Of a stretch of DNA of 25,129 nt, positions 8,706 through 23,590 are shown in pieces; position 1 is the first letter of the stretch; each line of letters opens with the position of its first letter. Location: the NCBI GenBank assembly GCA_040905425.1, contig JBBDRO010000074.1, positions 1 to 25,129 on the forward strand, in the 5' to 3' direction. The stretch is from Gemmatimonadota bacterium. Its GTDB lineage: Bacteria; Gemmatimonadota; Gemmatimonadetes; Longimicrobiales; RSA9. Under the pieces are notes generated by a model. That model made no database searches. It was not told where the DNA came from and worked only from the letters and a program-made list of their open reading frames with translations. The translations under genes and the position numbers were made by a program.

Positions 8706-8795
8706 AGACGAATGCGGCGCCATGGCACCTCGTTTCGGTCCATATGATCCCGTTACTGATTGCTATGTACGGCGTTGCGTCAATCCGACCCAAGA

Positions 8796-8925: not shown

Positions 8926-9219
8926 ATGAAGAAGAATCGACTGTTGATGAAGGGGGCCGCAGTTGTGGCGCTCGCCACCGTGGCCAACGTCACCGCCTCA
9001 GACCACGCGGCCGCCGAGCCCGAGATCGACACGGCGCGCGGTTGCGCCGTCTGCTACTTGGAGCCCGGTATCTGCGAAGAAAACGCATTCGAAGACTGCC
9101 AAGAACTCTGCGATTCCGCACCGAGCGGCGAATGCCAGGACTACGAGGTGGGGGGCAACGTGAGCTGCGACACCGAGCAGACGGTGTACGAGTGGGTCGA
9201 CTGCGACGGTGCAGGCTAA
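8926..9219 (+). CDS. Small secreted cysteine-rich acidic protein (8 Cys)
   Basis: 97 aa. AAGGACGGAG RBS. Sec signal MKKNRLL...HAAA. The predicted 67 aa mature part has 8 Cys, 18 Asp/Glu and 1 Arg. Confidence 0.8.
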   Translation: MKKNRLLMKGAAVVALATVANVTASDHAAAEPEIDTARGCAVCYLEPGICEENAFEDCQELCDSAPSGECQDYEVGGNVSCDTEQTVYEWVDCDGAG

Positions 9220-9243
9220 TCGTACGATCAGTTCGACACGCTC

Positions 9244-9285
9244 CGGGGCCGCACCCGCAGGACGCGAGTCGAGGGTGCGGCCTCG
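9244..9285 (+). other. Stable intergenic hairpin between the peptide gene and dsbA
   Basis: GGCCGCACCC (9247-9256) and GGGTGCGGCC (9273-9282) form a perfect 10 bp stem, extendable to 13 bp with one G-U pair. No U tract follows. Confidence 0.6.
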
Positions 9286-9319
9286 ATCCATGGCAGGGAC
9301 TCCAGAATAGGATCAACCC

Positions 9320-10033
9320 ATGAACGGACATCTTGAAACGGCGGGAACGGTCACTGTGATCCTTGCGGCACTGGCAGTCACCTCGTCCGTCGTCCACCGT
9401 GAGTTCTTTAACCCCGGAGCTGCCGTCGGCGCGTCTGGCGCTGTACAGGGCGCTGTGCTGAGCGAGCGACCCACGGAGCCGGTGTACATAGAGGACTGGC
9501 GCGGCCTTCTCGAGCGCGGCACTCAGATTGGCGCCGACCCGGCAGCGGTAGAAATGGTAGTCTTTACGGACTTCCAGTGTCCCTACTGCCAGCGGTTCCA
9601 TGCGGCGTATAGGAATGCCAAGGCTCTGCTAGGAAACGACTTCAGACTGACATATCTGCACTACCCATTAACAACACATCCGCACGCGGAGCAAGCAGCA
9701 CAGGCAGCTGAGTGCGCCGGAGCGCAGGGGCAATTCTCGGCCTTTGCGGATGCACTCTTTGAACAGCAGGCGTCAATCGGTATCAAGTCGTGGATGTCCT
9801 ATGCCGATGGCGTCGGAATCCCGGACACGGCGACTTTTAATCGTTGCGCAGCATCGGACTCCCATAGTGAGAAGATTACGAAAGGCAAGGAGGAAGGGGT
9901 GGCGTTGGGGGTCACCGGCACGCCGACCGTGATCATCAACGGCTGGCGCTTGCCACGGCCACCCCATGACTCCTTGGCAGAGGTGATCGAGGCCATCCTC
10001 GATGGGCGGCCTCCCTATAGCAGTGCTGGCTGA
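9320..10033 (+). CDS. DsbA-family thiol-disulfide oxidoreductase, membrane-anchored
   Basis: FTDFQCPYC active site, HYPL..HPHA, GVTGTPT cis-Pro loop, N-terminal hydrophobic anchor. Confidence 0.9.
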   Translation: MNGHLETAGTVTVILAALAVTSSVVHREFFNPGAAVGASGAVQGAVLSERPTEPVYIEDWRGLLERGTQIGADPAAVEMVVFTDFQCPYCQRFHAAYRNAKALLGNDFRLTYLHYPLTTHPHAEQAAQAAECAGAQGQFSAFADALFEQQASIGIKSWMSYADGVGIPDTATFNRCAASDSHSEKITKGKEEGVALGVTGTPTVIINGWRLPRPPHDSLAEVIEAILDGRPPYSSAG

Positions 10034-10185
10034 GATTTGCGGTGGCTCACTTCGGAACCGGACGTGACCCTTTATCGCCGTATGGTTCTTGCATCAGCGC
10101 GTAAACTGGTTCAGCTCTTTCGAAAGAGAGGAAGCAGTCGCTGAGAGGCTTGAGCCGATTCGATGGAATGCACCGGAGGCATGGC

Positions 10186-11379
10186 ATGAGGCAGAGATGG
10201 TGGAGAGCAGTTTCGCTCAATAGTATGCTGCTGCTGACGATTGGTGCCGTCTGGGCCACTGGGGGTGGTGCGCAAAGTTTGCTGATTGACCGATCGTTGT
10301 CTCCCCCAACGGCCGTGTGGAGTCGCGGATTCACGTCGATCACCTCCGTCCGCGAACTGGATGGCGGAAGGACCCTAGTCGCCGATCGCGGTGAACGTAG
10401 TCTATACCTTGTCAATTGGGAGACGGGTGCTGTTGATCAGCTCTTACGCCGCGGTGAAGGCCCCGGGGAGTACCAAGAAATCGGCTGGCTTTATTCGGTT
10501 GGCGATAATGAGACCCTTCTCACAGCCGTCGCGCCGCGTCGGTGGATTCTGCTTCGTGACACCAAGGCTGCTCATACGTTCACCCGCGCCGATCCACTGA
10601 TCAGCCGATTCCGATCCCGTCTCGACGGTGTTGCCACAAGCGGCCGTGTCCTTGCTTCAGTCAGTGCGGAACGCCCCGGGAGCCTGACAGCTGACACACG
10701 CGTCATCGAGTTGACACTAGATCTGGCTCCCCACGAGGATCTCCCCCGCCTGGACACCATCGCCCGCCTCAGCGGCACTGGGTATGAGCAGCGGCGGTGT
10801 GTAGTCGTGGTGGCAGGCGGGGGCAGCGCGCCATCACCCTGCAATTTCCTCGAGGCCGAGGAGCAGGCCCTCATCTTCCCGGATGGGTGGATCGCAATAG
10901 CCTTACAGGATCCGTATCGCGTCTTCTGGTACTCTCCAGATGGTGATCTGATACAGGGGGAGGCATTGGAGGACGGCTCCGGTCCGGTGACTGATGCGGA
11001 GAAATGCGCTGCCCTCAACGGATGGGCGGAAGGCGGCGCGGCGTGTGATGCAGCCGCGGTCGAACGTTTTTCCTGGCCAGACGAGATTCCGCCGTTTCTG
11101 ACGGACTCGAGGACGTGTAGGGCTTGCAAGGGACTCGCTGCCGGAGTAGCGCCGTGGCTGTTCGCCGATCCCGGCGGGCGGCTCGTCGTGCGGCGCACGC
11201 CTCATCTTTCGCGGCGGGAAAATCGGTATGATGTTTTTGATCGAACCGGACGGTTGGTGGAGCGAGTCACCCTTCCGCACGGGCAGGCGATCGTCGGGTT
11301 CGGCGCATCGAGCGTATACACGATACGTATGGACCAGTATGATCTCCAATGGCTTCTCCGCCATCCGTGGCGGGATTGA
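10186..11379 (+). CDS. Exported six-bladed beta-propeller-like protein with three Cys pairs
   Basis: GGAGG RBS before ATG 10186. Signal peptide, VRELDGGRTLVAD, RRGEGPGEY motif, C-terminal YDVFDRTG...GFG.SSVY..R.D..DLQWL. Confidence 0.75.
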   Translation: MRQRWWRAVSLNSMLLLTIGAVWATGGGAQSLLIDRSLSPPTAVWSRGFTSITSVRELDGGRTLVADRGERSLYLVNWETGAVDQLLRRGEGPGEYQEIGWLYSVGDNETLLTAVAPRRWILLRDTKAAHTFTRADPLISRFRSRLDGVATSGRVLASVSAERPGSLTADTRVIELTLDLAPHEDLPRLDTIARLSGTGYEQRRCVVVVAGGGSAPSPCNFLEAEEQALIFPDGWIAIALQDPYRVFWYSPDGDLIQGEALEDGSGPVTDAEKCAALNGWAEGGAACDAAAVERFSWPDEIPPFLTDSRTCRACKGLAAGVAPWLFADPGGRLVVRRTPHLSRRENRYDVFDRTGRLVERVTLPHGQAIVGFGASSVYTIRMDQYDLQWLLRHPWRD

Positions 11380-11439
11380 AAGTCGCTGAGCGTGTTGTTT
11401 GCACCCGAATGCACCCGGCGCGTGACCACTCGTAGGTAT

Positions 11440-12861
11440 TCAGAGCCCCAGCCGTTCCATCCGCGAACGCAACGTGCTCCGCGCCACACCCAGCATTCGC
11501 GCCGCCGCGTTCACATTGCCAGCGGTTCGCTGTAGCGCCTCCTTGATATGCATCACCTGCGCCTGCTCAAGCGTCATCAGCCTGCCGTCAGGCTGATTGA
11601 ACCGCGCGCCTGACGTATCAGGATCGCTTGATCCCGATTCTGCGGCGATCTTCGGGCTCTCGGCCGATGCCGTAACGCCGAAGGAGGCCAGCGACTCACC
11701 GATTCGGAGGTCCTCCCGATAGATCACGCCGTCTTTTGTTCGCAGGACGCCTCGCTCGAGGCACCCTTCCAGTTCACGCACGTTCCCGGGCCAATCGTGG
11801 TGACGCATACACTCTTTGGCATCATCGCTCAGTATCGGAATTGTAGTATGGCCATTCCTCAGAGCAATGCGCGCGAGAAGGTGTCCCACGAGTGCCCCCA
11901 GATCGTCAATATGCTCGCGTAGCGACGGTATCCGGATCACGGCGACCGCTAGCCGATGCAGCAGATCGCTGCGGAACCCGCCCTTCTCGGTCAGGGCATC
12001 CAGATCCTGATTCGTGGCGGCGATCACCCGCGCGTTCGTCGTCAGCTCGGTCTCACCACCTATGCGATCGAAGGTGCCATCCTGAAGGACGCGGAGCAGC
12101 TTCGCCTGGAATTCGAGCGTGGCGTCTCCTATCTCGTCGAGGAGGATCGTGCCGCCGCTCGCTTGCTCGAAGCGGCCCCCGTGGTCCCGTGCCGCGCCGG
12201 TAAAGGCGCCCTTGGCGTGACCGAAGAGTTCGGACTCGGTGAGAGAGGCGTTCACCGCAGCACAGTTCACGGTCACGAACGGGTGGTTACGTCGTTCTGA
12301 ATACTCGTGGATGGAGCGGGCGACCAGCTCCTTCCCGGTGCCCGTCGGGCCGACGATCAGCACGGTCGCGTTGGTCGAGGCGAAGTCCGCGATCTGCCTG
12401 CGGACCTCGAGCATCTGTGCGCTCCGCCCGATCAGCCGAGGCTCCTGGTCGGTGGCGGACGTGGGGTAAGTCGGGTGGCATCGCTCGCGGATGCGGCGGG
12501 ACATGAATCCCCTGGCAACGCGATCCCGGATGTCCTTGTGGTCGAGCGGCTTCCGCAGGACGTCCAGGGCACCGATCTCCTTCGCCCGCAGGATCGTGCG
12601 GATGTCCGCCCCGCCGCTCATGAGCATGGCGTCCGCGTCGGGCGTCCGCCGAAGTAAGCGTTCGATCAAGTCAAGGCCGCCGAGATCAGGCAGATCGGCA
12701 TCTGCGATGAGGAGATGAGGCATAAAGCTATCCACCATGCGGAGTGCACCCGTTGGATCGTCGGCTTGTCGGAGTCGCCTCCCTTGGCCTCCGAGCGCAT
12801 GCGCAAGGATCCCGCGGGCCGATTCGTCGCCGCCGACGATGAGGATCCTCTCTTCCGGCAC
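11440..12861 (-). CDS. Sigma-54-dependent transcriptional activator, NtrC/Fis family (receiver-AAA+-HTH)
   Basis: Likely GTG start at 12861 after an AAGGGAGG RBS. Receiver domain, Walker A GPTGTGKE, ESELFGH..GAFTGA, Walker B ILLDE, WPGNVREL, Fis-type HTH GNVNAAARMLGVARSTL. Confidence 0.93.
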   Translation of the reverse strand: MPEERILIVGGDESARGILAHALGGQGRRLRQADDPTGALRMVDSFMPHLLIADADLPDLGGLDLIERLLRRTPDADAMLMSGGADIRTILRAKEIGALDVLRKPLDHKDIRDRVARGFMSRRIRERCHPTYPTSATDQEPRLIGRSAQMLEVRRQIADFASTNATVLIVGPTGTGKELVARSIHEYSERRNHPFVTVNCAAVNASLTESELFGHAKGAFTGAARDHGGRFEQASGGTILLDEIGDATLEFQAKLLRVLQDGTFDRIGGETELTTNARVIAATNQDLDALTEKGGFRSDLLHRLAVAVIRIPSLREHIDDLGALVGHLLARIALRNGHTTIPILSDDAKECMRHHDWPGNVRELEGCLERGVLRTKDGVIYREDLRIGESLASFGVTASAESPKIAAESGSSDPDTSGARFNQPDGRLMTLEQAQVMHIKEALQRTAGNVNAAARMLGVARSTLRSRMERLGL

Positions 12862-13503
12862 GGAACGCCTCCCTTCATGTGGGACGCCCGGCGGGGTAGT
12901 GCTGGCATGGCAAGGGGAGCGCGCACGGCAGGCGTTGGCCTGAGGCCACCCGATTCGAATGACCGGCAAACGTCGATCCGACCGGCGGCAGCTAAGGTGG
13001 TGTGCCTTCCCCGCCCCTAGCTGGGCCGTGCGCCCGGGGAGGAATGAGCGCCTTGTCTATAATAGCACATTCGGCTGCCGGAGGGGAATGTTGGCCAGAC
13101 CCCGGCAGCCATTTCGGAAGGCTGGGCTACTTCAGGTTGTCGGAGGGCGGCGGCGCGGCCGGCGGAGCTGGTAGCGGCAGCACGAGGAAGGCCGGCGGTC
13201 GAAATCGTTGAGGTACGTGGGCCGAAGGGGGCTTCCAGTGGGTGCGTCGGCGCGAGGAGAGACAGGGGTCCCGAGCGGCGTGGAGACGCCGCCTTGGGAT
13301 GAGCGTGGAAGCGGATCTAAGCTGCGCGCCTAGCTGGTGTCGTAGGCCACGTCGCGAGCGAGATTGATCCAAAGCAGGCGGCACAGCTCGATGGCGCTGT
13401 ACGGCTTGTTCGTACCGCGACGGAGGTAGCGCAGGCGAGAGAGCCGGTCCACGCACATGGCGAGAAAGGTGAGGAGGGTGCGGGCCAGGACGCTGTTGGG
13501 GTG

Positions 13504-13791
13504 GTGGTGCGGGGTGGCGGTCCAGCCGGCGGCTGCGCCGGTGAGGTCGATGGTGGTGTGCTGGGGGACTTGGAAGCAGGCCAGCTCCGCCCCCTCGGAC
13601 GCATAGCGCCGGCGCGCGGCGAAATGCTCGTTCTGCAGCCGTACCAGCTCATCGAGGCCCTCGTGGAAGCCGTCCAGGGGGCCGGGTGTGGTGATGATCG
13701 AATAGACACCGTGGCGCGTGCTGAGACTGAACATGCGCTCCACGGCCGCGTAGCAGATGACCTCGGCACTGACGGCGGAATCCGCACTCAC
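13504..13791 (-). pseudogene. Internal fragment (copy 2) of the gene at 14357-14935, running into unrelated sequence
   Basis: ITTPGPLDGFHEGLDELV...GWTAT is nearly identical to the other copies. The upstream plug-like part is diverged, an in-frame stop lies shortly upstream, and the sequence after GWTAT is unrelated. Confidence 0.7.
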
Positions 13792-13887
13792 GTCCGCGTT
13801 CGTAAACTCGGTCCTTTCACTTCAACTCAAGGGTGACGATGCCAACGATTTCCCTTGATTTCCGATGGGACTCCCCTATCTTGCATA

Positions 13888-13905
13888 GTGTAACTAAGGT
13901 GACAC
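13888..13905 (+). promoter_or_regulatory. Probable autoregulatory operator of the AbrB-Doc module
   Basis: Imperfect inverted repeat GTGTAAC-TAAG-GTGACAC next to TTGCAT (13881-13886), just upstream of the antitoxin RBS. Confidence 0.4.
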
Positions 13906-13926
13906 ACCCCCTGTACAGGAGTCGCT

Positions 13927-14160
13927 ATGTCCACACTCTCAAGCACTACGCGGAGCCAGGGGGCCTCGGTCGTGACAACCCTCCCGGCAGAGGTCGTCCG
14001 GCGGCTTGGCATCCCCCCAGGGCAGCGGTTGGACTGGATTGAAGATGGACTGGGCGGATTTCGGGTCGTCCCTCATTCCGAGGAACTTTCGGCAGCCGTC
14101 GAGGCCCATGAAGCGATCATGGCCGAGTACGACGGAGTGTTCCGCGAACTGGCGAAGTGA
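13927..14160 (+). CDS. AbrB/MazE/SpoVT-family antitoxin
   Basis: 77 aa. QGASVVTTLPAEVVRRLGIPPGQRL swapped-hairpin motif, and a C-terminal IMAEYDGVFRELAK tail typical of AbrB antitoxins paired with Doc. AGGAG RBS. Confidence 0.82.
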   Translation: MSTLSSTTRSQGASVVTTLPAEVVRRLGIPPGQRLDWIEDGLGGFRVVPHSEELSAAVEAHEAIMAEYDGVFRELAK

Positions 14161-14322
14161 GCGGCCAAACGGGCATGGAAGAGCCCCAATGGCTCACTGA
14201 GACTATGCTCCTGGTGATCCATGCCCAGCAGGTAGAGCGGTACAGGGGAGCGCACGGTATTCTCGACCAGGATGTCGTGCGCTCCACGCTTGCGCGACCG
14301 ATTCACCGGTGGGCCTATGATG
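14157..14322 (+). pseudogene. doc: Truncated Doc (death-on-curing, Fic family) toxin
   Basis: WLTETMLLVIHAQQVERYRGAHGILDQDVVRSTLARP..RWAY matches the Doc N-terminus. The start overlaps the antitoxin stop. The frame then runs into the antisense strand of the next gene, and the Fic motif HxFxDGNKR is absent. Confidence 0.75.
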
Positions 14323-14356
14323 ATGCGCGATCACGCGGGGCCGTGGTGACCGGTTC

Positions 14357-14935
14357 CTACTGGCCGTGCTTGTGCTCTGAGAAGCACTTGGGAGTATCCT
14401 GCGCCATGTCCGCATGGGGTTTGGCCACCGCGCCACCGTAGGCGTGGCAGACCCGGTTCACCATGGCGTGGCGCACGGTGGCGGTCCAGCCGGCGGCTGT
14501 GCCGGTGAGGTCGATGGTGGTGTGCTGCGGAACCTGGAAGCCGGCCAGCTCCGCCACCTCGGACGCATAGCGCCTGTGCGTGGTGAAGTGCTCGTTCTGC
14601 CGCCGCACCAGCTCATCAAGGCCCTCGTGGAAGCCGTCCAGGGGGCCGGGGGTGGTGATGACCGACAGGACGCCGCGCTGCACGCTGAGGCCGAACATTC
14701 GCTTTGCGGTTTCGTAACAGAGGACCTGCACATAGATGACGGTTTCCGCGCTCAGATCATAGTCCCAATTGTCGATGGCTACGACCTTCCCGTTCACGAG
14801 GATCATCCATTCGGGCTGCCCGACAGTGACGTCGGGTCGTACCGGACAGCCCCGATCCGGTGAGGTGCGCGCTCCGGGCACGGCCAGCAGAAGCGCCATC
14901 GGCAGGACAATCAGGTGCAGGCTCGGGAGGTTCAT
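14357..14935 (-). CDS. Exported hypothetical protein with a TonB-plug-like N-terminal segment and a pilin-like C-terminal domain (intact copy 3)
   Basis: Signal-like MNLPSLHLIVLPMALLLAV. ILVNG...DLSAETV..VQVL...A..MFG....GVLSVIT resembles the plug-domain signature. QNEHF..HRRYA...GWTAT..H....C..Y.G...C resembles a pilin head domain. Confidence 0.6.
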   Translation of the reverse strand: MNLPSLHLIVLPMALLLAVPGARTSPDRGCPVRPDVTVGQPEWMILVNGKVVAIDNWDYDLSAETVIYVQVLCYETAKRMFGLSVQRGVLSVITTPGPLDGFHEGLDELVRRQNEHFTTHRRYASEVAELAGFQVPQHTTIDLTGTAAGWTATVRHAMVNRVCHAYGGAVAKPHADMAQDTPKCFSEHKHGQ

Positions 14936-15028
14936 CGGACTCGGGTCGCGAGAATCCACGGTCTTTGCAGTAGTAACGTCTGAGCGGGGGGAATGGTGAC
15001 GGCGGGCGGCAGTTGGCAGCGCGGGATG

Positions 15029-16249
15029 CTACGGCCAGTCGATGCGGTACACGCGGATGGATTGCACGCCGAACTCCCCGGTGAAGATCCCCCACAGGTG
15101 GTTGCCGCGCAGCCCGAACATCCGGAATCCCTCGGGGAGAAGCACCCGAGCCCGGAAGGCGCCATCCGGCTCGAAGACGTCGTAGGCGGTCGGTTCGGTC
15201 CATTCATCGTCGACCAGGCGCGAGGGCATGGAGACCATGGCCAGCAGCCTGCCATCTGCCGAGAACGTGATGCCGCGGAGCGGCGGTTTCTGCGTGGGCA
15301 TGGGCGGGATGCGCAGGCCGCCGGCCCCCTCGACGCTAGCGATCTCCTCTTCCAACCGTTGCCGGGCGGCCGCCTGCTCGGCTTCCGGGACGGGGATCGG
15401 CGGGATATCCCGTGTGAACACGGGGGAGGGCTCTGCGTCCCGGGCGTCGCTGCCGTCTGCGGCATGGGGCGGCGGCAACACGTCGATCCGGTACCGGTCG
15501 GTGCGGGTCACGGCGAATCGGCCCCCGGGACTCCACGACCAGAGTCCCCACGGCTGATAAGGCACCGTGAAGCCGCGCATCGAACGTCCGCCGTTGGAAA
15601 CGTGCCGGAGAGTCTCGCGCTCCACGTCCGGCACGGGTGGCAAGGCGACCGTGTCGAGCACGCTGCCTGCCTGGCTCAGCCGCAGGAAGCGGGTTGGCGG
15701 GGCGTTCGGTCCGGGACGTCCCCGGAACGGGAGCCACAGAAGGCCGGCCGTGTCAACCCGAAGCGGATCCCGCCCCCCATGGGTATAGGTTAGCCGCGTC
15801 TCCAGCGTCCACACCGTGTCCAACCCACCGTCGGCCGTGTAGAAAGTGATCCTGTCCGGCAGGCTGTAATCGCGGAGCGCCACGCGCCCATCGGGCGTCT
15901 CAGCCAGCCCATTAGGCGCGCGGTACTCACCAGGGCCGGCGCCGTCGCGGCCGACGTGCCGCACGTAGCTCCCTTCGGCGTCGAACTGCCGGAGCATGGC
16001 GCGGGCGCCGCCCAGACCCGAGGCGTCTCCACCGTCGGCCACCCAGATCATGCCGTCGGAGGTGCGCAGGATGTTGACGATGGCGGCGAATTCGTAGTCG
16101 GCGCCGGACTGGTCCTCACCGATGGTGGCTTCGAGCACGAGGTCGGCGTAGGGGCCGGCGGCCTCGGGGTACAGGTCGGGTGCGGCGTCGCTGTTACCGC
16201 AGCCAGCGGTAAGGACGGCCATAGAGAGGACGAGGGCAGGGGCGCGCAT
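15029..16249 (-). CDS. Six-bladed beta-propeller-like lipoprotein
   Basis: Start ATG 16249 (alternative 16288). Lipobox LTAGC, GRDGAGPGEY motif, C-terminal YDVFEPDG.F...V.LP...GEFGVQSIRVYRI. Confidence 0.78.
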   Translation of the reverse strand: MRAPALVLSMAVLTAGCGNSDAAPDLYPEAAGPYADLVLEATIGEDQSGADYEFAAIVNILRTSDGMIWVADGGDASGLGGARAMLRQFDAEGSYVRHVGRDGAGPGEYRAPNGLAETPDGRVALRDYSLPDRITFYTADGGLDTVWTLETRLTYTHGGRDPLRVDTAGLLWLPFRGRPGPNAPPTRFLRLSQAGSVLDTVALPPVPDVERETLRHVSNGGRSMRGFTVPYQPWGLWSWSPGGRFAVTRTDRYRIDVLPPPHAADGSDARDAEPSPVFTRDIPPIPVPEAEQAAARQRLEEEIASVEGAGGLRIPPMPTQKPPLRGITFSADGRLLAMVSMPSRLVDDEWTEPTAYDVFEPDGAFRARVLLPEGFRMFGLRGNHLWGIFTGEFGVQSIRVYRIDWP

Positions 16250-16458
16250 CGACTGCCACGCCACGGGGCGGGTCGGGTCGCGGAGCATACCGATACGTAA
16301 GCAATCGTCGCTTGCCGGGCAACAACTTGGCATCCACCCCTTGGCGGCCAGGAGCTGCCACGCCGTATTCCCCGCCTGCTAATCCAACGCTCCGCCGCCC
16401 ATCCGAGCATTGAACGCGCCCGCGGGTGGGTCTATCTTGGATGGAGGGAGGTCATGCC

Positions 16459-17037: not shown

Positions 17038-17164
17038 CGCGGGGAACTCGGCCACGCGGCAACGAACCACGCCTGCGCCAGCGCGAGCACCATCTTGCGT
17101 TTCGGGAGATAGCCACACGCCAGCGTCCACATTCGGAAATGGCTAGAGCTAGACTGCCCCTGGC

Positions 17165-18397
17165 CTACCCTGGGCCTCGCGTCAAAGTGTGGAGGTGTAC
17201 GTACTCCACATCATATTCCCCGAGGTGTCTTCCAAGGATGTAGTCCAACCCGATATCCAGCACGCGTTCGAACCGCGGCAATTCGGCGGTCGCGACGAGT
17301 TCCCCGGTGGGCGTGTAGATGCTCCAGGCCGCGGATGAGGCACTGGCATGCGCCGGGTGCTGGACCCAGAGTAATCCGGCGCGGTCGACGTGCATGTCGA
17401 CGAAGTAGGGGTGGTACTCCGGGATGGGAGTCCGCTCTACCTGGTCCTTCAGAGTCGAATGGAATTCTGCCGGGAAAGTTTCGAACAGGAATCCGTTTTC
17501 CATTGCGGCGCGGAATGCACGTTCATCTTCATCCGTCACGGGCAACCGAGGCGTCCTCACCGGAATGCTGGCGAGACGGTTTCCCTCGGGAGCGAACACG
17601 GAGATCTGCGGCTCGGAATTGTCGCCAACGAACACATGATCGGCCCCGGCCGCAAAAATGGTCGAGCTACCGTAGGCGACGGGCTGTGGTGGAAGGACGG
17701 AGTTGTTCCGGTCCCGATACACCTCGCTGCCGAGGAAATCGCCCAGTGTGTCCGTCCGGGCCGACCTGGCGTGCCAGATCATAAGCTGAAATCGCGGGCG
17801 TTCCGTTCCGAGAGGGCTAAGTACGGGTGAACTCGCTCTGCCCGAAAACAGAAAGCGCTCAGCGCCGAACGGTTCCCAGGAGCCGGCAGGCGGGGTAGCC
17901 GAACTGGCACGCGGCCCACGATCCGTCCTCGCCAGGCTGAAATCGGGCAGATGATAATAGTAGAACCCGTCCCTTGTGTTCTGCACCCGCAAGGTGTCGA
18001 CGCTGACCTCGGCGAGCGACGAAATGAGGTCGAATTCGCCCGGACCGCGGCCCTTGCGACCGACGGCCTGTTGGAAGACCCCATCCGCGAGGAATATCCG
18101 CATTTCCAACGGATCGCCGTTGGCCACGACGATGCGCCCATCACTCAGCTTGATGGCATTAAAGACTCTGTTGAACAGGTACGGCGCTGCCCCTTCCAAC
18201 TGGCCAAGCTCGAGGGATGGCGTGGGACTGACTGACCACGGCTCGCCGGGAGGATCCTGCGCTCCGACAGCATGAGGGAGGATGGCGACCAACCCCAAAG
18301 CGATGGTCGAGACAGCCCATTGGCATCGCTGGTGCCAATTGGTCCGATTGGGAACAGCGATGCAGGACTGAGGCGAAGTACTTGTATCCGCTGCCAT
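17165..18397 (-). CDS. Exported six-bladed beta-propeller-like protein
   Basis: 410 aa. Signal ending VGA-QD, G..EG..PYLF, LSDGRIVVAN, GRKGRGPGEF, VDRAGLLWV, W..Y...G, EYDVEYV. Starts 8 nt after the peptide gene stop. Confidence 0.78.
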   Translation of the reverse strand: MAADTSTSPQSCIAVPNRTNWHQRCQWAVSTIALGLVAILPHAVGAQDPPGEPWSVSPTPSLELGQLEGAAPYLFNRVFNAIKLSDGRIVVANGDPLEMRIFLADGVFQQAVGRKGRGPGEFDLISSLAEVSVDTLRVQNTRDGFYYYHLPDFSLARTDRGPRASSATPPAGSWEPFGAERFLFSGRASSPVLSPLGTERPRFQLMIWHARSARTDTLGDFLGSEVYRDRNNSVLPPQPVAYGSSTIFAAGADHVFVGDNSEPQISVFAPEGNRLASIPVRTPRLPVTDEDERAFRAAMENGFLFETFPAEFHSTLKDQVERTPIPEYHPYFVDMHVDRAGLLWVQHPAHASASSAAWSIYTPTGELVATAELPRFERVLDIGLDYILGRHLGEYDVEYVHLHTLTRGPG

Positions 18398-18405
18398 GGA
18401 TGATG

Positions 18406-18981
18406 TTACTGCTGCAAGGCGGCGGCCATCCGCCCTGACAGTGGGATTCCTATATCGAGACCAGTACAGGGCGCGACTGTCAATACATTGCGCATTGCGT
18501 CGACCGAGACCTGGGATGGACGTGCTGCCAATACTTTTTTCAGGGCTTCAGTCCGTCCGTCGACGACGAGGCTCAGGATGTAGGTCAACCCTGGGTCCCA
18601 GCAGCGCATGGTAGGACATTCGCCTGGCTGCCAATTCTGGGTGTCGCAAATGCTCTGAAGTCCAGCCTGCAGGTTTTCGATTTCACAGACGCGGCATTCG
18701 TCTGGAGCTTCGGAGCTATCGCATTCGAAAACACTCGACCAGATGTGCATGTCCGTGCTGTCGTTATAGGTGCAGTACATGCAATTAGGGTCCAGGGCAT
18801 TTGCTTCTGTTGGAGAGGTGGTGGAGGACGCTTGGGTCGACGTCCCATCCGCCACCGAAATTGCTGGAGGGGCTGGGAGTTGGACGGCGCCGTCCTGGGC
18901 ACGAAGGTCGACCGGCGTCGTGAGGAGGACGACGGTGAACAGTGCGAGCCCGAGTGTTCGGAAGGCTACTGAGGTGATCAT
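18406..18981 (-). CDS. Secreted cysteine-rich protein (8-Cys core plus a C-terminal domain)
   Basis: ATG 18981 after an AAGGGAG RBS; 191 aa. Signal peptide ending LRA-QD, Ser/Thr/Pro linker, core CMYC...C...CRVC...C...CPTMRC, then a tail of about 60 aa with one more Cys. Confidence 0.75.
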   Translation of the reverse strand: MITSVAFRTLGLALFTVVLLTTPVDLRAQDGAVQLPAPPAISVADGTSTQASSTTSPTEANALDPNCMYCTYNDSTDMHIWSSVFECDSSEAPDECRVCEIENLQAGLQSICDTQNWQPGECPTMRCWDPGLTYILSLVVDGRTEALKKVLAARPSQVSVDAMRNVLTVAPCTGLDIGIPLSGRMAAALQQ

Positions 18982-19066
18982 GGTGGCTCCCTTGGAGTGG
19001 GCGCTGGGCCGGTAAGGTCCCGTCCCGTATCTGTATCTGATCATACCCTAGCTTCACCGAACCGAA

Positions 19067-19753
19067 CTACTCCAGGTCCTCGTGATCCACCTTCATCCCG
19101 TCCTTGAGCGGCCCGCGACCCTTCCGCAGCGTCTCCCTGACCGTCGCAACCGCGATATCGAGATCCTCAGCGATTTCCGGGGCGGTGGCCTCTTCGAAGT
19201 AGTACTTCCGGGCTACCTCCTCCTGGCGGGGTGCCAGCCCGGAGAGGGCCGCGTCGGCTTTCTCAAGCACCTCGCGAGAAGCTGCCGACTGGTCGGGTTG
19301 CGTCGGAACGAGGAATTTCGGTGGGTGCTCCTGGAGCCGTTCACGGCGCCGGGTCTGGTCGCGCCAGAGGTTGCTGATTCTCCAGCGGACCGCCTTAAGC
19401 AGCACCCTGATCTGATGTTCGCGGGGGATGCCCTGAAGCGGCAGCTTGCCTCGGGCCGCCTTCAGAAATACCCACTGCACCACATCCTCCGGTTGCACGC
19501 ATCGCTCCACCTTCGCGCCGCCCATCATGCGGTTGGCATGCCTGAGCATCCTTGGCTGCGCTTCTGCCACGATTGCAGCAAATTCAGCCTCGGGGAGGCG
19601 GCGGCGACCGCCCTTCGGTCTCGCGGTTGAGCCTCCGGATTCGTGGGGCTTCGAACCCCGCTGCCGGTCCTTGACGGCCCGGCGGCGAGATGGGGTACGT
19701 GACATGCTGGCGCGGTCAACGGGCGTCCGGGCTCGGCTGAGGGCCATGCTCAC
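19067..19753 (-). CDS. ECF-type sigma-70 family sigma factor (copy 1)
   Basis: Region 2 (RMLRHANRM...PEDVVQWVFLKA) and region 4 HTH (LSGLAPRQEEVA...TAPEIAEDLDIAVATVRETL.K.R), with an Arg-rich N-terminal extension. Start is GTG 19753 or ATG 19747. Confidence 0.82.
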   Translation of the reverse strand: MSMALSRARTPVDRASMSRTPSRRRAVKDRQRGSKPHESGGSTARPKGGRRRLPEAEFAAIVAEAQPRMLRHANRMMGGAKVERCVQPEDVVQWVFLKAARGKLPLQGIPREHQIRVLLKAVRWRISNLWRDQTRRRERLQEHPPKFLVPTQPDQSAASREVLEKADAALSGLAPRQEEVARKYYFEEATAPEIAEDLDIAVATVRETLRKGRGPLKDGMKVDHEDLE

Positions 19754-19780
19754 CTCGCGCGTTCAAGGGCGGGTAGACGG

Positions 19781-19865
19781 TTGCCGCGAGCTACGTCACC
19801 AGGGCAGGGGTCGGATCGGGGTTGCTGCTCCTCCCAACGTGTGAAAGCGGCCCGCTGCACGCAAG
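19781..19865 (-). promoter_or_regulatory. Conserved upstream element (copy B) of the ECF sigma gene
   Basis: Minus strand reads TTGCGT-N17-CACGTT then a leader containing GATCCGACCC. Homologous to 2673-2758 and 24305-24389. Confidence 0.55.
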
Positions 19866-20007
19866 CCTCGTTTGCAGAACGCAGTGCCACACCGTTTGAT
19901 CCCCCACCCGCCCCCCGGTACTTTCTCCCCACGACGAACGATGCCCCGCCGCCGGTGAGCCGGCGCGGGGACGTCGCTTACCAGGAAGAGAAGGGGCGGC
20001 GGCAAAG

Positions 20008-20442
20008 GTGAGTGAAGAAGATCAGGTGATACGCATAGCCTCCGGGCAGGGCTTCTGGGGGGACCGGCTGAGCGCGCCTGTGGAGCAGGTGCGGCGCGGG
20101 CGGATCGACTACCTCATGCTGGACTATCTGGCGGAGGTGACCATGTCCATCATGCAGAAGCAGCGGGGGCGCGATCCGTCCCAGGGGTACGCGCGCGACT
20201 TCGTGCCGCTCATGGGGGAGATCCTGCCGGACTGCGTGAGCAAGGGGATCCGCGTGGTGGCCAACGCGGGCGGGGTGAACCCCGAGGGGTGCGGCGCGGC
20301 GGTGCTGGAGGAGGCCCGACGGGTGGGGCTCAAGGGCCGCGCGCGCGTGGGCGTCATCACCGGGGATGACATCCTGGACCGCCTGGAGGAGCTGAGTGAG
20401 CGGGGGCACGCGCTCCGTAACATGGACACGGGGCGGCCTTGA
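20008..20442 (+). pseudogene. Duplicated 5' fragment of an acyclic terpene utilization AtuA (DUF1446) family gene
   Basis: [12 protein letters not shown]...[15 protein letters not shown]. Nearly identical to 24532-24962 but ends at TGA 20440-20442, where the repeat ends, whereas the other copy continues. Confidence 0.85.
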
Positions 20443-20468
20443 TTCAGCTGACCGAACAACCGATCAGA

Positions 20469-21725
20469 TCAGGACTCAGGAGTTCCAGTCACCTCCTCCA
20501 AGGTTCGGAAATTCCGTGGCGCAAGGCGCAGTTCGAAGAACTCGATCGAAAAAGATCCCAGCGAATCTGGCAGCGGGCGATAGCTTGCCGCCCGCCCCGC
20601 TATGAATGATGCGATCGGAGGCACGTCACGCTCGTCTTCTCCTGGTAGATTGTCGAGCCGACCGGACGCGAGGACCATCCCTCGCTGGGGATCAAGGACC
20701 TCATAGCGAATGTCGTAAAGTTCGCTGGCTGCTTCGTCCGGGGCCCGCTCCTGCTCGATGGATCGGCCCTCCGCGTCCTCGACCAGCACCACGATCCAGA
20801 GACGGCCGTGTTCGTCCAGATGTAGGATTCGAACGTCGGGTAGCTGTTGTCCCCCTCGTACCACCTCAGCGTGGATCCAGTCTGCCTCCCGTCGGATCAC
20901 TTTCCCGCTATGGCCGTTGATGCTCCATTGCTCCAGGACCAACTCACCCGTTGACTGGACGGGCAGAGCGGCCCAGAAGGTGGTATCTCCGTCGTAAGCA
21001 CTGGGGCGCGGCGGAAGCATTCCGGTGGTCTCGGCATCTCCGGAATCGACTGATCCAAAGGATTGTACGACATACCCCTCGGGATCGAAGATGTGAAACC
21101 ACTGGTCGGTCGGCGCACCACCCACGCGGCCAGTCGAAAGAAACCGGCCGTCACGCAGGATGTGGAGGTGCCTCGGAATGCCTTGTATTGCAGGGCTCGT
21201 GATGGTCCGGCCATACGAATGATCCGGGCCGAAGACGGTCCACTTCACCCCGTCGCGTACATAGATCGAGTCCGCAGGCCCGACGAAGACCCGAGGCAGA
21301 CCCTTGCCACTGAGTTCTCCGGGGCCGCTCCCCGGCGAACCCAGGCTCTCCAGGAACATGCCATCGGCGCTCCATTCCAGTACCATGCCGGGGCCAGACG
21401 CCAGCGTTGCAGGTGTGTACATCCGGCCGTCGCTTGCTCGAGCGATGCTGTTCCAACTCGGATCGGGACGTTTGCCGGTCGCCGATGGCTTCAACATCTG
21501 CACCTGACGGACTGCGACCACCCGGCAGGGGGCCGGTAGTCCACCACGTATGACAACCGGTCCCGATGCCGCGGTCCTTTCGCCAGCCCGCTCCGGCTCG
21601 CATGCAGGTATTCCGACACCAGTTTCGACGCTTATGATCTCGATTGGCGCTTCGGCTTCTGACACATCACAGCCGACTGCCGCTACACCCAGGCCACAAA
21701 GTGCGGTCACCGTCGCCGAGCGCAT
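20469..21725 (-). CDS. Six-bladed beta-propeller-like lipoprotein
   Basis: Likely ATG 21725 (MRSATVTALCGLGVAAVGC lipobox). GSPGSGPGEL motif, GPADSIYV, LDEHGRLWI, YEVLDP..G.VLASG. Confidence 0.75.
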   Translation of the reverse strand: MRSATVTALCGLGVAAVGCDVSEAEAPIEIISVETGVGIPACEPERAGERTAASGPVVIRGGLPAPCRVVAVRQVQMLKPSATGKRPDPSWNSIARASDGRMYTPATLASGPGMVLEWSADGMFLESLGSPGSGPGELSGKGLPRVFVGPADSIYVRDGVKWTVFGPDHSYGRTITSPAIQGIPRHLHILRDGRFLSTGRVGGAPTDQWFHIFDPEGYVVQSFGSVDSGDAETTGMLPPRPSAYDGDTTFWAALPVQSTGELVLEQWSINGHSGKVIRREADWIHAEVVRGGQQLPDVRILHLDEHGRLWIVVLVEDAEGRSIEQERAPDEAASELYDIRYEVLDPQRGMVLASGRLDNLPGEDERDVPPIASFIAGRAASYRPLPDSLGSFSIEFFELRLAPRNFRTLEEVTGTPES

Positions 21726-21736
21726 GACGATTTGTC

Positions 21737-23002
21737 TCACGGAGCGCTCCAGCCGATGATTCGGAACGCCTCGTATCGCCCGCCGAGCGTATCCGATCGC
21801 TCGGCGACGAGAAGTCCCTCGGAAATTCCGACTGTACGAAAACCAGCAGGGATGGTCAACTCGGCGAGAAGCTGCCCATTCGGGCCAAGTACAATCCACC
21901 TCTCGCCATCTTGATCGTTTCCTGGCAGGTCATACTCCCGGATGAAACTCGTGCCGTCCGGTAGCGCGATCAGCCGGGAGGCCGAGGGGAAGCGGGACGC
22001 CGCGGCCCTGGCCGCGAGGTCCGTAAGGCTGCGCTCCACGCGTTCTGGGTGATCGCTCCCCACACGCACGATGCTCTCAGCATAAGCCTTCCGCCAGGCA
22101 TCGACAGCAGCAGGCGTTACGGAGCGATCCGCTGTCGACCATCGGGATTTCCACTGCGGCTTTCCTTCCAAAGACAACGAAAATACGACAGGTGCCGTAT
22201 CGGGCACCACCAGAAGGCCGTCGGATGTGACATCAACAGCAAAGCCCGGGTGGTATCCAAAAATGGGACGTGAGCCAGACTCTTCGTCCCACTCAACGCC
22301 ATAATGGAGGATCGTATCCGTAGGGTAAGGAGAGCCGATGTGCGACAACGCCGATCCGGGGACCATGACTACGCCACCAACCATTTCCTGCCCAAGTCGT
22401 TGCGTCCGCATCGAAAAGAGCAGTGACGTGTCGGCAAGCACCCCGAGAAACGGCCCAAGCTCGACCGGGGCGTCCCGGAGCCTCTTCGGTGTGTGACCGA
22501 CCGCAATCGTCCAGATATCCCGCCGACTGCCCTCGTCGCTACGCCAGGCTGCCACGATCACAACGGTGGAGTCGACTCCTGAGGCACCGAAGTCCCCGAA
22601 GCCTCGACTCGAGGTGGGCGCAATGATGACTTGCGAGGGTGAAGCAGGCGTACCTAGCGAATCGAGCCACAGCACCTGGATCTGGTTCTCTGCAGCCTGG
22701 AACACGATTCCCGTCACGCGGCCTGGGAGCGCCACAACATCTTCAACGTATGCCTCTCCCGGTAGCGCAATGGGGAAGCCGTCGCCGATTGTCCACTTGG
22801 CCGCGGATGCTCGGGATTGCTGCGAAATCAATGTGACGTGATCGACCGGCGTGGAACTCCGCAACACCTCCTGAGCGGGTCCTCTACCTTCAAGCTCTGC
22901 GGAGCATCCGAGCAGGAGAATGCTCAGGGGGACAATAGTTAGGAGCGTGCGCGGTATTCGATGAGAGCAGCCGGCACCATGTGGATCGGGAGCTACGTTC
23001 AT
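21737..23002 (-). CDS. Divergent beta-propeller-like lipoprotein
   Basis: ATG 23002 (alternative 23038). LLLGC lipobox. The C-terminal half (R.VT....AW...FP....LI..PDG..F.REY......WIVLGPNG.L.A.L..P.GF) resembles the other propellers, but GxGPGE is missing. Confidence 0.65.
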   Translation of the reverse strand: MNVAPDPHGAGCSHRIPRTLLTIVPLSILLLGCSAELEGRGPAQEVLRSSTPVDHVTLISQQSRASAAKWTIGDGFPIALPGEAYVEDVVALPGRVTGIVFQAAENQIQVLWLDSLGTPASPSQVIIAPTSSRGFGDFGASGVDSTVVIVAAWRSDEGSRRDIWTIAVGHTPKRLRDAPVELGPFLGVLADTSLLFSMRTQRLGQEMVGGVVMVPGSALSHIGSPYPTDTILHYGVEWDEESGSRPIFGYHPGFAVDVTSDGLLVVPDTAPVVFSLSLEGKPQWKSRWSTADRSVTPAAVDAWRKAYAESIVRVGSDHPERVERSLTDLAARAAASRFPSASRLIALPDGTSFIREYDLPGNDQDGERWIVLGPNGQLLAELTIPAGFRTVGISEGLLVAERSDTLGGRYEAFRIIGWSAP

Positions 23003-23082
23003 GAATCCGATACGTCGGAAACGACATGGTTCATGCATGATGTTGCCCCGTCATCCACATTCCGGTGTCTACTGAACACTGG

Positions 23083-23116
23083 CGTACGGAACACACCAAC
23101 GTCGGGGCTCCGCACG
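23083..23116 (-). other. Intergenic hairpin after the peptide gene
   Basis: On the minus strand CGTGCGGAGC...GTTCCGTACG forms a 10 bp stem with two G-U pairs. No U tract follows. Confidence 0.4.
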
Positions 23117-23141
23117 TTAGCTTGGGCGTTGCCGTTTCGCG

Positions 23142-23468
23142 CTAGCTCTCGCCGCCACCGGAGCAACCATCGACCGGGTGCTCCATGGAATCGTCCGTGA
23201 AATAGTCGTTGAGCGAGCCGTGATTGGTGCCCTTGCGACCGTTCGCATAGCCCTCGAACTCCCACTCTCCGTCCGGCTCCTGAAGGGTGGGTTGGTCGCC
23301 GCCGTTCCACATGTGATGAGGGTCATCAGGATTCAAGGTATCGATCTCCCACCAGTCCTCGTAGTCGTTGCAGCCGTCCCTCGATGCCGCCGGCTGAGCA
23401 GTGGCCAGCATCAGGATCGCCACTCCCGTAAGCGACACGGTTCCCTTAGCGATTGTCTTTCCGGTCAC
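23142..23468 (-). CDS. Small secreted acidic protein with two terminal Cys
   Basis: GGAGG lies 5 nt before GTG 23468; 108 aa. Hydrophobic signal ending QPAA/S. The mature part RDGC...VDGCSGGGES has 20 Asp/Glu, 4 Trp and 4 His. Confidence 0.72.
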   Translation of the reverse strand: MTGKTIAKGTVSLTGVAILMLATAQPAASRDGCNDYEDWWEIDTLNPDDPHHMWNGGDQPTLQEPDGEWEFEGYANGRKGTNHGSLNDYFTDDSMEHPVDGCSGGGES

Positions 23469-23590
23469 GGTTGCCTCCGCTTGGGTAGAATCAACTGGGC
23501 TTCGCATCCGGCTGCGTAGTCATCCATTGAAGGGCTGACCGTTCACACCAGGCACCTACATCTTCTATACCCTGGCTCTACCGAACCGAA

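Follow-up and report, generated by a model that had tools for sequence, protein, structure and literature searches.

Cassettes of small exported proteins and propellers at duplicated anchor genes in a sediment Gemmatimonadota bacterium

The window, the whole 25,129-nt stretch that we analysed (contig JBBDRO010000074.1), comes from a Gemmatimonadota bacterium from sediment and contains three gene groups, whose reported coordinates and ORFs proved correct on re-check. Group 1, on the forward strand, consists of mini-protein 1 (8926-9219; 97 aa, 8 Cys, a signal-like N-terminus, mature D+E/K+R 19/1), a membrane-anchored DsbA-like oxidoreductase with a CPYC motif (9320-10033; PF13462, E 4e-19) and propeller p1 (10168-11379, with an uncertain start at 10150-10225). 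Group 2, on the reverse strand, consists of a 191-aa protein with 9 Cys, here termed class B (18406-18981; mature D+E/K+R 21/9, a Cys/His N-domain and a conserved C-domain), and propeller p2 (17165-18397). Group 3, also on the reverse strand, consists of mini-protein 3 (23142-23468; 108 aa, only 2 Cys, 4 His, acidic, mature D+E/K+R 20/3) and the lipoprotein propellers p3a (21737-23002), which is very divergent and for which close relatives were not found, and p3b (20469-21725), a member of the class-B-partner (PB) clade of propellers. An earlier note on this DNA had described a small gene followed by one or two propellers, with DsbA once in between, and coordinates and ORFs confirm this layout; all three of its co-oriented groups exist, but orientation is common only inside a group. 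The same note had called the small proteins acidic, secreted and Cys-containing: they are acidic and have signal-like N-termini (the N-terminal hydrophobic stretches of the group proteins, all positive by an in-house heuristic, are predicted only), but they are three different things, and mini-protein 3 has just two Cys.

Propeller pC (15029-16288, reverse strand) has no small partner, and propellers pA (423-1577) and pB (1595-2638), both partnerless and on the reverse strand, lie outside the three groups, pB belonging to the PB clade. An 86-nt element upstream of pB (2673-2758, reverse strand) is 74-76% identical to the DNA upstream of both ECF σ genes of the window, ECF1 and ECF2; it is possible that it is a shared promoter or the remnant of a fourth cassette. 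Toxin-antitoxin and Uma2 genes are also present in the region, Uma2 outside both of the inserts described next.

On the left, a 297-bp direct repeat (8355-8651 vs. 14366-14662, 94% identity) bounds a 5.7-kb insert with group 1. Its left arm is the displaced 3′ half (8355-8651, reverse strand) of an intact gene for a secreted 192-aa protein (14357-14935, reverse strand), the anchor of this insert, whose weakly pilin-like C-terminus is inferred from a phmmer match (E 7e-4); a second partial, diverged copy of that gene lies at 13330-13791 (reverse strand; 83% over 287 bp). On the right, the two copies of a 1,396-bp mosaic direct repeat (19043-20438 and 23567-24962) lie around 3.1 kb: the left copy carries ECF1 (19067-19753, reverse strand) and an atuA 5′ fragment cut after codon 144 (20008-20442, forward strand), and the right copy carries ECF2 (23591-24277, reverse strand) and the 5′ part of an atuA gene that runs on to the contig end (from 24532, forward strand). 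The ECF1 and ECF2 proteins are 80% identical, with no change in 84 σ2 codons and 33 of 62 σ4 codons changed, and the atuA parts of the two copies show two differences in 431 nt; the 1.4-kb duplication is real, includes a truncated atuA and holds the two ECF σ genes as mosaic alleles of a single gene. An assembly chimera of two strains is ruled out because a contig of run X1, which may be the source sample, crosses the 20438/20439 junction with no differences and because contig depth is equal on all three cassettes (33.5-37.9, vs. 57 on the repeat). Of the 55 relatives that have an atuA match, 54 carry one copy of the gene; the relatives include no same-genus genome.

The footprint is not confined to this contig. 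Contig C58 has the same architecture as the window with a different ECF gene and an MFS gene, and duplication-bounded segments make up 2.2% of the genome, yet hold 8 of 21 small partner genes and 14 of 120 propellers; half of these segments (11/22) carry unrelated cargo and no propeller. The GC content of the cassettes is 0.60-0.61 vs. 0.70. With one contig per strain as evidence, variants occur in other sequencing runs: on one contig of run X5, which belongs to a different study, an ECF1-type allele is followed by a mini-3-type gene (87% identity over a gap-free stretch), and one contig of run X3, from a related strain, lacks pC through a 1,328-bp skip. Both inserts are shorter than 20 kb, are flanked by repeats longer than 30 bp and lack an integrase; the three tyrosine recombinase matches of the genome lie on neither C74 nor C58, and C74 has no PF00589 match. 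ComEC and DprA families are present in the genome. Because the footprint recurs on C58 and single contigs show reshuffled or missing genes, the proposal that such modules are exchanged as cassettes is supported, and the bacterium appears to hold foreign-looking cassettes that are stacked and reshuffled between strains.

The regulators do not follow the groups in the way that had been proposed. That each group has its own regulator is unsupported: the gene for an NtrC-like σ54 response regulator (11440-12861, reverse strand), inside the group 1 insert, is convergent with group 1 and downstream of it, and the ECF genes are one duplicated gene. The 400 nt that precede each of the three small genes hold no −24/−12 motif, a σ54 motif scan of 19 upstream regions gave one loose match and none in the window, and σ70 promoter and terminator scans stayed at shuffle level; we found no support for control of group 1 by the σ54 response regulator. 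Six of 21 small partner genes follow an ECF-like gene (two in the window, one on C47 and three on C58, one of these broken), and none of the remaining 15 was seen behind such an ECF gene. Close kin of this ECF subfamily were found neither among 40 relatives (best E 1.6e-7) nor among 400 genomes of the class (best E 3.6e-17), and a metagenome scan confirmed none. No membrane anti-σ gene lies beside the ECF genes, the products of the following genes having about 10 residues before their hydrophobic stretch. Both ECF alleles share σ2 and the recognition helix, and it is therefore unlikely that they use different promoters.

All seven window propellers fall into one HMM family of 120 ORFs built from this genome, and they are, as previously noted, highly divergent (best-scoring window pairs share 23-41% identity in local alignments of 68-385 aa). 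The suggested membership in known propeller families held in part: PF17170 (cut-off 22.9 bits) is above cut-off in pA (26.8) and p2 (24.2) and below it in pB (22.6) and pC (17.2), with no match in p1, p3a or p3b, whereas PF15869 (TolB-like) matched none of the 25 scanned window proteins and no PB-clade member; weak PF17170 matches extend to four of the seven window propellers and, in the PB clade, to 23 of 38 members. For p3b, the one window propeller covered by fold prediction, the model is a six-bladed NHL-like fold (pLDDT 76, pTM 0.77) whose best match is PDB 3S9J (Z 20.7, rmsd 3.7, 310 aligned residues, ~10% identity), with a fold likeness to the lyase PAL (3FW0, Z 16.4). Like Bacteroides BVU_1028 (DUF4221, 3S9J), BF0058 (4RAA) and DUF5128/PF17170 proteins, p3b is an exported, functionally uncharacterised protein with a predicted NHL-like six-bladed fold; it differs in that identity is ~10% and that here a clade is tied to an undescribed, non-NVEALA partner family. 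The NVEALA link in the earlier note is an analogy only, as PF14055 and PF15869 matched none of the 25 scanned window proteins; at E 0.01, PF14055 found none of the three small proteins, and a genome-wide search was blank, as was its control. p3a gave two partial matches in 250 genomes and only itself among proteins. A literature search that covered few subscription papers and no supplements found no paper naming DUF5128, and for DUF5128, BF3164, PF17170 or “6-bladed beta-propeller” the matches listed used the generic term only. NVEALA gave none where coverage of subscription papers is thin, and Gemmatimonadota with beta-propeller and cysteine-rich gave PilY1 work only, in the text available from those sources.

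Small Cys proteins pair with propellers beyond chance in this genome. A co-oriented propeller lies at most two genes downstream of 10 of 44 small secreted ORFs with at least 4 Cys (two of the ten being DsbAs and two the window's own), compared to 96 of 3,606 non-propeller genes overall and 4 of 289 small secreted ORFs with fewer than 2 Cys; the enrichment predicted for such neighbours was borne out. The genomic data show at least two types of cassette. In type A, a dedicated DsbA accompanies a mini-protein that is hypervariable, acidic and Cys-rich, often with a propeller as well; in type B, a class B Cys/His protein is joined by a propeller from a single clade.

The class B family, to which the 191-aa protein belongs, is undescribed so far and has 1,707 representatives. 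In the source genome it includes nine paralogues of the window member (leave-one-out E 1.2e-6), and there are ~10 diverged copies per genome with 17-27% identity. Three His, four N-domain Cys and one C-domain Cys are 91-100% conserved, the three His being kept in 108 of 117 members; the window protein retains just one of the three. Within those 117 members, no Pfam family matched more than one and PF14055 matched none; fold comparison gave no Foldseek match at E 0.001, a best VIA Z of 4.3 for the C-domain only and Atlas TM of at most 0.36. In a tree of 115 propellers of the genome, the PB clade has 22 members (support 0.997); it has its own conserved Asp-x3-His (92%). At 85 foreign loci, 85 of 94 class B ORFs adjoin a PB-clade propeller; four others lie beside a general-type propeller only and five have no propeller, two of these at contig edges. 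Class B and PB propellers co-vary over 78 pairs (rho 0.38, null max 0.08), and when partners are shuffled within genomes (49 pairs, 14 genomes) the value of 0.37 compares with a null mean of 0.12 and a maximum of 0.28, with 0 of 999 shuffles reaching it. Class B co-varies with the PB clade beyond host ancestry, and tandem class B–PB arrays occur in G027 (L146, with three pairs) and G414 (L144).

These results support the idea of cognate pairs at the family level, for class B and its propeller clade. However, the group 3 propeller p3b represents this clade in the window, and p2, which the earlier note had paired with the class B protein, does not. Profile scores separate the two (p2: 235 bits for the general type, PN, vs. 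56 for PB; p3b: 133 for PB vs. 55 for PN), and of the two, p3b is the likelier candidate partner of the window class B gene. Among 92 candidates, co-variation ranks p3b 24th and p2 33rd for the window class B protein, with a method that ranked six of the nine true pairs of the source genome worse than 30th. A complex prediction for p3b (36-412, 38-row alignment) and the window class B protein (62-191, 117 rows) gave scores of 0.01 and 0.00, with an uncertain partner fold and without controls, and carries no weight for or against binding.

For the mini-protein of group 1, the partner that is conserved is DsbA, which belongs to a subfamily tied to Cys-rich minis. A co-oriented Cys-rich mini is found at 21 of 29 foreign loci of this DsbA; the opposite strand has one at 3 of 29, and random windows give 21 of 300. 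A propeller lies within 1.5 kb at just 15 of the 29. Relatives of p1 have a credible upstream mini in 2 of 29 loci and DsbA in 1 of 29. The 8-Cys mini-protein is tied mainly to DsbA, not to its propeller; adjacent, co-inherited and variable pairs are found for class B–PB and not for mini 1–p1. Mini-protein 1 is one of eight minis with 8-12 Cys that adjoin propellers in the source genome; the minis have no common Cys spacing, and propellers adjoining 8-Cys minis form no clade of their own in the genome propeller tree. Mini-proteins 1 and 3 match only themselves among 5.8 billion proteins, and an Atlas search with mini-protein 1 gave a best feature score of 0.78, below the lead threshold. That mini-protein 3 is a free class B N-domain was rejected for now (hhalign probability 1.6%, no match in the paralogue search), and no likeness was found between it and the other 2-Cys mini.

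GC3 divides the PB clade: it is 52-70% in each of the 10 paired members and 73-93% in each of the 12 orphans, with p3b entered as paired despite 1.5 kb of duplicated DNA between it and the class B gene. Paired PB propellers thus look recently acquired and orphans more host-like, a split as would be expected if propellers outlast their small partners; alternatively, orphans could derive from older acquisitions that never had partners. Receptor genes behave similarly in the Bacillus Rap-Phr systems, in which orphan Rap receptors accumulate and outlast co-encoded peptide genes. Rap proteins are cytoplasmic TPR proteins that pair with short linear peptides, and we claim no homology.

We propose, at a little under an even chance for footprint mobility and ligand-binder function taken jointly, that the window is a place where exported cassettes of two or three genes, all of one family, are captured. 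From the observed footprint we infer that DNA of a related strain, with another cassette behind the same anchor (an ECF gene and a divergent core gene), enters and recombines with the anchor by homology, while its distal end is joined illegitimately; the old allele would remain in tandem with the new one, separated from it by a cut copy of the core gene, and no integrase would be needed. Two described processes come close. According to PMC5361080, homology-anchored illegitimate recombination is proposed to add paired modules to Vibrio cholerae Type VI effector-immunity arrays, with mosaic alleles and orphan partner genes kept. The paired modules, mosaic alleles and orphan retention are alike here; however, no secretion machine or recognisable toxin domain was found with our cassettes, both partners are predicted to be Sec-exported, the anchor is an ECF gene and a core gene that ends up in two copies, one of them cut, and the old small gene stays instead of being exchanged for the new one. 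Tandem alleles and arrays and the orphan GC3 split would fit arrays built by displacement, with orphans as putative descendants of pairs. Insertion with long target duplication, as PMC2853133 presents it, involves inserts below 20 kb, long imperfect direct repeats (46 to about 420 bp) and no integrase, mostly in naturally competent species and with restriction-modification cargo. Insert size, imperfect direct repeats and integrase absence agree with our locus, whereas here the repeats span 297-1,396 bp, the footprint is repeated and nested, and the copies are diverged alleles; restriction-modification genes are absent from both window inserts.

As for function, the small protein would be disulfide-folded in the periplasm and become a specific ligand of the co-inherited propeller, and propellers would be kept after loss of the small partner, like orphan immunity or receptor genes. 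As strains differ in their pairs and propellers seem to outlive their partners, we favour a strain-recognition or conflict role, in which the small protein may be a signal received, or an inhibitor neutralised, by the propeller; on sequence evidence, we regard such a ligand-binder role as possible, though somewhat short of probable. The fuller picture, an undescribed polymorphic recognition system of this phylum with private strain sets of disulfide-bonded secreted ligands, cognate NHL propellers, integrase-free stacking behind ECF genes and orphans kept as receptors or neutralisers, is more doubtful. Several observations weigh against the ligand-binder reading: no toxin, signalling or enzyme domain was recognised in the small proteins (Pfam for 117 class B members; NCBIfam for 26 small proteins, none above cut-off), no dedicated outer-membrane exporter or delivery gene was found among the 25 scanned window ORFs, and the co-variation can be explained by linked transfer alone. 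If true, the fuller picture would explain the roughly one hundred propellers of this type per such genome. The hugely expanded DUF5128-type propellers now have candidate ligands in class B proteins and DsbA-linked minis, and their turnover a proposed genetic mechanism, with the prediction that orphans are leftovers of pairs. Should the recognition or conflict reading hold, strains of a soil and sediment phylum that is abundant but little studied would interact through a new kind of system, which would also supply natural scaffolds in the form of disulfide-rich mini-proteins; otherwise, the locus is a clear multi-locus example of integrase-free cassette stacking.

The conserved three His look more like a metal site than a hypervariable toxin, and an unlikely alternative to the ligand-binder reading is that the cassettes are periplasmic metal or redox modules: class B would bind Cu/Zn via the three His and form a two-subunit enzyme or chaperone with its propeller, 8-Cys minis would be DsbA-oxidised metal- or ligand-binding proteins, and stacking would be a by-product of a transformable genome and would not reflect conflict between strains. 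The conserved His and Cys of class B, the Asp-x3-His of the PB clade, the metal enzyme PAL among propeller folds and the unrelated cargo of half the duplication-bounded segments are consistent with it; the many diverged class B copies per genome, the tandem arrays of diverged pairs, the kept partnerless PB propellers, the unshared Cys spacing of the minis and the lack of metal-resistance genes in the window argue against it. Extracytoplasmic sensing, in which small protein and propeller sensor would control the co-encoded ECF σ factor or be its output genes, draws on the six partner genes behind ECF-like genes and on the 86-nt element that precedes both window ECF genes and pB; we consider it improbable, given the missing adjacent anti-σ gene, the isolated ECF subfamily, the 15 partners not seen behind such an ECF gene and the σ2 and recognition helix common to both alleles.

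The minis also resemble precursors, with a signal peptide and a hypervariable Cys core, and NHL propellers include the peptide lyase PAL, so that an exported propeller might process the co-encoded peptide after DsbA oxidation. Bufferin/oxazolin-type peptides combine a signal peptide, a Cys-rich core and a nearby ECF σ gene; these features recur here, but with DsbA and propellers instead, and DUF692 (PF05114) has no match in the 96.7% complete genome (control positive in Caulobacter). With residues conserved across 115 propellers mostly Gly, Pro and Trp (few Asp/Glu/Arg positions), a best structural match, 3S9J, of unknown function and ~90 genome propellers without a nearby peptide, we think this substrate-enzyme reading quite improbable. 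A chance pile-up of unrelated secreted genes in a plastic, propeller-rich region is very improbable as a general account: 120 propeller ORFs, the toxin-antitoxin and Uma2 genes and the lack of a conserved partner for p1 and p3a speak for it, whereas the clade-specific adjacency (85/94), the class B–PB co-variation that survives within-genome shuffling and a mini–DsbA link that exceeds its controls speak against it. Chance may account for mini 1–p1, mini 3–p3a and class B–p2 only; it is excluded for class B–PB and mini–DsbA.

The window system is real, partly as the earlier note saw it, and represents genome behaviour of a known kind that carries undescribed protein families. The genome (G000; 4.12 Mb, 70% GC, 96.7% complete) is contained in sediment metagenome runs, and the window is its complete contig C74; an iterated HMM search seeded with the seven window propellers identified 120 propeller ORFs in it, with gene calls and signal peptides being heuristic script predictions. 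The three gene groups reported earlier are present (8926–11379, 17165–18981 and 20469–23468), and the association of small Cys proteins with propellers exceeds chance: a co-oriented propeller lies at most two genes downstream of 10 of the 44 small secreted ORFs with at least four Cys in G000 (two DsbAs and two of the window's own included) vs. 96 of 3,606 non-propeller genes, and 16 of 20 acidic secreted small ORFs with at least six Cys have a same-strand propeller nearby. The regulators differ from their earlier description as one per group: the σ54 response regulator is located downstream of group 1, in convergent orientation; no −24/−12 motif was found upstream of the small genes; and the two ECF σ genes (19067–19753 and 23591–24277) are alleles in one duplication.

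The small proteins of the three groups differ in kind. Mini 1 (8926–9219, + strand) contains eight Cys, and mini 3 (23142–23468, − strand) two Cys and four His; each matches itself alone in the protein collection. Mini 1 is among eight minis with 8–12 Cys that adjoin propellers in G000 and share no common Cys spacing. The five nearest paralogues of the group 1 DsbA (9320–10033) in G000 all lie within loci of this mini-and-propeller type, and a profile of mini-linked DsbAs has matches in 85 of 251 genomes of the order. The 29 best foreign DsbA loci include a co-oriented secreted Cys-rich mini at 21, a propeller at 15 and both at 11 (controls for the mini: 3/29 on the opposite strand and 21/300 random windows); the 29 best relatives of propeller p1 (10168–11379) have a candidate mini at three, one being a spurious frame, and DsbA at one. 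By these neighbourhoods, mini plus DsbA is the conserved unit of group 1, with the propeller as a looser companion. Some DsbA-linked minis (L084, L087, L089, L094, L097 and L102–L106) are 57–77 aa long with adjacent Cys-Cys pairs, at times two in tandem; their Cys-Cys pattern presumably recalls conotoxin or knottin frameworks.

The small protein of group 2 (18406–18981, − strand) belongs to a family, class B, with ten members in G000, matches in 51 of 401 genomes of the class, 1,707 representatives at E 0.001 and no Pfam family. It comprises a Cys/His N-domain followed by a conserved α/β C-domain (model pLDDT >90 across most of residues 131–190). Of 117 members, 108 keep three His. One of these remains in the window copy, which may therefore be degenerate. 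The propellers adjoining class B genes form one clade, PB (22 of the 115 G000 propellers that reach 300 aa; support 0.997), with a clade-specific conserved Asp-x3-His motif. Among 94 foreign class B ORFs at 85 loci (the best-scoring matches fetched from the class-genome search, with two broken genes counted twice), a PB propeller is adjacent to 85, a general-type propeller alone to four and none to five. Class B similarity follows PB-neighbour similarity (ρ 0.38), also against shuffling of partners within genomes only (0.37 vs. a null maximum of 0.28; reached in 0 of 999). The two families are thus co-inherited; binding is a separate step that we infer. Two foreign loci (L146 of genome G027 and L144 of G414) contain diverged class B and PB-propeller genes in head-to-tail arrays, with three class B genes in L146.

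The idea of cognate pairs survives, as co-inheritance, for class B with the PB clade; p2 (17165–18397), the propeller of group 2, is of the general type. Profile scores (PB vs. general-type bits: 133 vs. 55 for p3b, 20469–21725; 56 vs. 235 for p2) identify p3b, not p2, as the PB member of groups 2 and 3. Disregarding the 1.4-kb duplicate, the window order is PB, class B, general propeller, as in 11 of the 94 foreign cases; class B followed by a general propeller alone occurs in four, in two of which a PB gene comes next. The reconstructed gap between class B and p3b is ~90 nt vs. 0–20 nt at seven other G000 loci, and p3b, ranking 24 of 92 in co-variation with the window class B protein, is not singled out. 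Despite these two observations, the protein probably belongs with p3b rather than p2.

Module propellers have GC3 far below the rest (22 vs. 93 propellers of G000, p 1e-7). Within the PB clade of this one genome, ten paired members (p3b included) span 52–70% and 12 orphans 73–93%, with no overlap. No class B gene was found around the PB orphans, and other small secreted ORFs were found near one orphan only (contig C36). The simplest reading for this genome is joint acquisition of both genes of a pair, the propeller persisting longer than the small partner.

Cassette exchange, also proposed earlier, is borne out by a duplication, a parallel locus and variant contigs. Each copy of a 1,396-bp direct repeat (19043–20438 and 23567–24962) carries an ECF gene together with the 5′ part of atuA, a divergently oriented core gene. 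The left copy of atuA is truncated after codon 144; of 55 relatives with a match, 54 have a single atuA. The copies are mosaic: atuA has 2 differences in 431 nt and σ2 has no changes in 84 codons, while 33 of 62 codons are changed in the σ4 region, with third positions enriched. An X1 metagenome contig spans the junction with no differences, and contig depth is 57 on the repeat vs. 33.5–37.9 on each cassette (X1 is possibly the source sample); together these rule out assembly error as the origin. In one 583-nt contig from another study (X5), an ECF1-type end (13 differences in 265 nt; ECF2 vs. ECF1, 39 in 214) adjoins a mini 3-type gene (29 differences in 227 nt, gap-free), which suggests that strains reassort ECF alleles and cassettes, and one X3 contig has a 1,328-nt skip across propeller pC.

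The same architecture occurs at C58:18369–31487 with a different ECF gene, present three times, a truncated MFS gene and a 1,115-bp duplication of ECF plus the MFS 5′ part. The three cassettes there stand in tandem, are ECF-led and differ from one another (8-Cys mini and propeller; class B, carboxypeptidase-regulatory-like protein and PB propeller; 12-Cys mini and two 91%-identical propellers). Contig C47 carries a third paralogue of the window ECF, followed by another 8-Cys mini, propeller, DsbA and propeller. As an alternative for the right locus of the window, a single longer operon could have received the 1.4-kb piece as an insertion, but the C58 parallel makes stacking likelier.

Group 1 occupies an insert of 5.7 kb between two copies (297 bp, 94% identical) of the 3′ half of a neighbouring gene, with a third partial copy nested inside. 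At C100:152279–158799, a 6.3-kb insert with a GC content of 56% is delimited by a 128-bp repeat at the 3′ end of a large transporter-like gene. It contains an 8-Cys mini, a DsbA, a PB propeller and class B, and, as in group 1, a σ54-type ATPase in convergent orientation. Duplications of neighbouring 3′ ends (405 and 305 bp) bound inserts with one propeller at C80:31588–34619 and two at C30:22018–24999, with no small partner found in either. From 31 intra-contig repeat pairs, 22 segments were kept after removing five C32 rows (short-repeat array or tandem paralogues) and merging four nested rows; these candidate inserts, defined by repeat bounds, make up 2.2% of the genome, and 8 of the 21 small partner genes and 14 of the 120 propellers lie in them. 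Cassette GC is 0.60–0.61. The footprint fits homology-anchored illegitimate insertion, as proposed for Vibrio effector-immunity arrays (PMC5361080), and insertion with long target duplication (PMC2853133). G000 has matches to ComEC and DprA, both widespread in controls; no tyrosine recombinase was found on C74 or C58.

The analysis demonstrates small exported Cys proteins, a DsbA subfamily linked to the minis, a propeller partner of class B that is specific to one clade, and cassette exchange at ECF-anchored loci. In the proposed mechanism, DsbA would fold the minis and the propeller would bind the small protein encoded with it. Recognition or conflict between strains could account for pairs that are specific to a strain and for the orphans that are retained, a reading we hold tentatively, at somewhat below even chances. 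The main rival, a metal-binding two-subunit module of class B and PB propeller, draws on the conserved His triad of the one and the Asp-x3-His of the other; we consider it rather unlikely. The fold of p3b is nearest to 3S9J (Z 20.7), a Bacteroides protein without an assigned function, and thus offers no structural clue to a role. In its workings the system resembles polymorphic paired-gene arrays, but it cannot be classed among them because no toxin or delivery system is evident; by profile the window is not an NVEALA locus, and a search of G000 indicated that its loci are not DUF692 peptide systems. Within the literature searched, no paper on class B/mini–propeller pairs was found; new here are the two loci with stacking behind ECF anchors, the variants among strains, the co-variation control with shuffling inside genomes, the GC3 split between paired and orphan propellers, and the revised assignment of partners.

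Further features were noted. A cluster of overlapping GC-rich palindromes (8652–8719) coincides exactly with the left junction of the insert that carries group 1. Both left cassettes have toxin-antitoxin genes at their flanks: a HigBA pair (3001–3502) lies just upstream of propeller pB, and 13957–14441 encodes a MazE-like antitoxin and, downstream of it, a short ORF that is truncated at the edge of the repeat (72% DNA match to C65:14556–14922). The secreted protein of 14357–14935 has no Pfam match; its C-terminal region is weakly pilin-like, and two larger proteins on C106, one of them a propeller, carry a similar region as a fusion. An 86-nt element (2673–2758) upstream of the orphan pB has 74–76% identity to DNA upstream of both ECFs, nhmmer finding no fourth copy; it is possibly a promoter or the remnant of a lost cassette head. 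The gene upstream of atuA (24532–25129) in 15 of 24 relatives has its G000 orthologue at C100:3–1307, running off the contig start, and the window in its entirety may have built up by accretion between atuA and this core gene.
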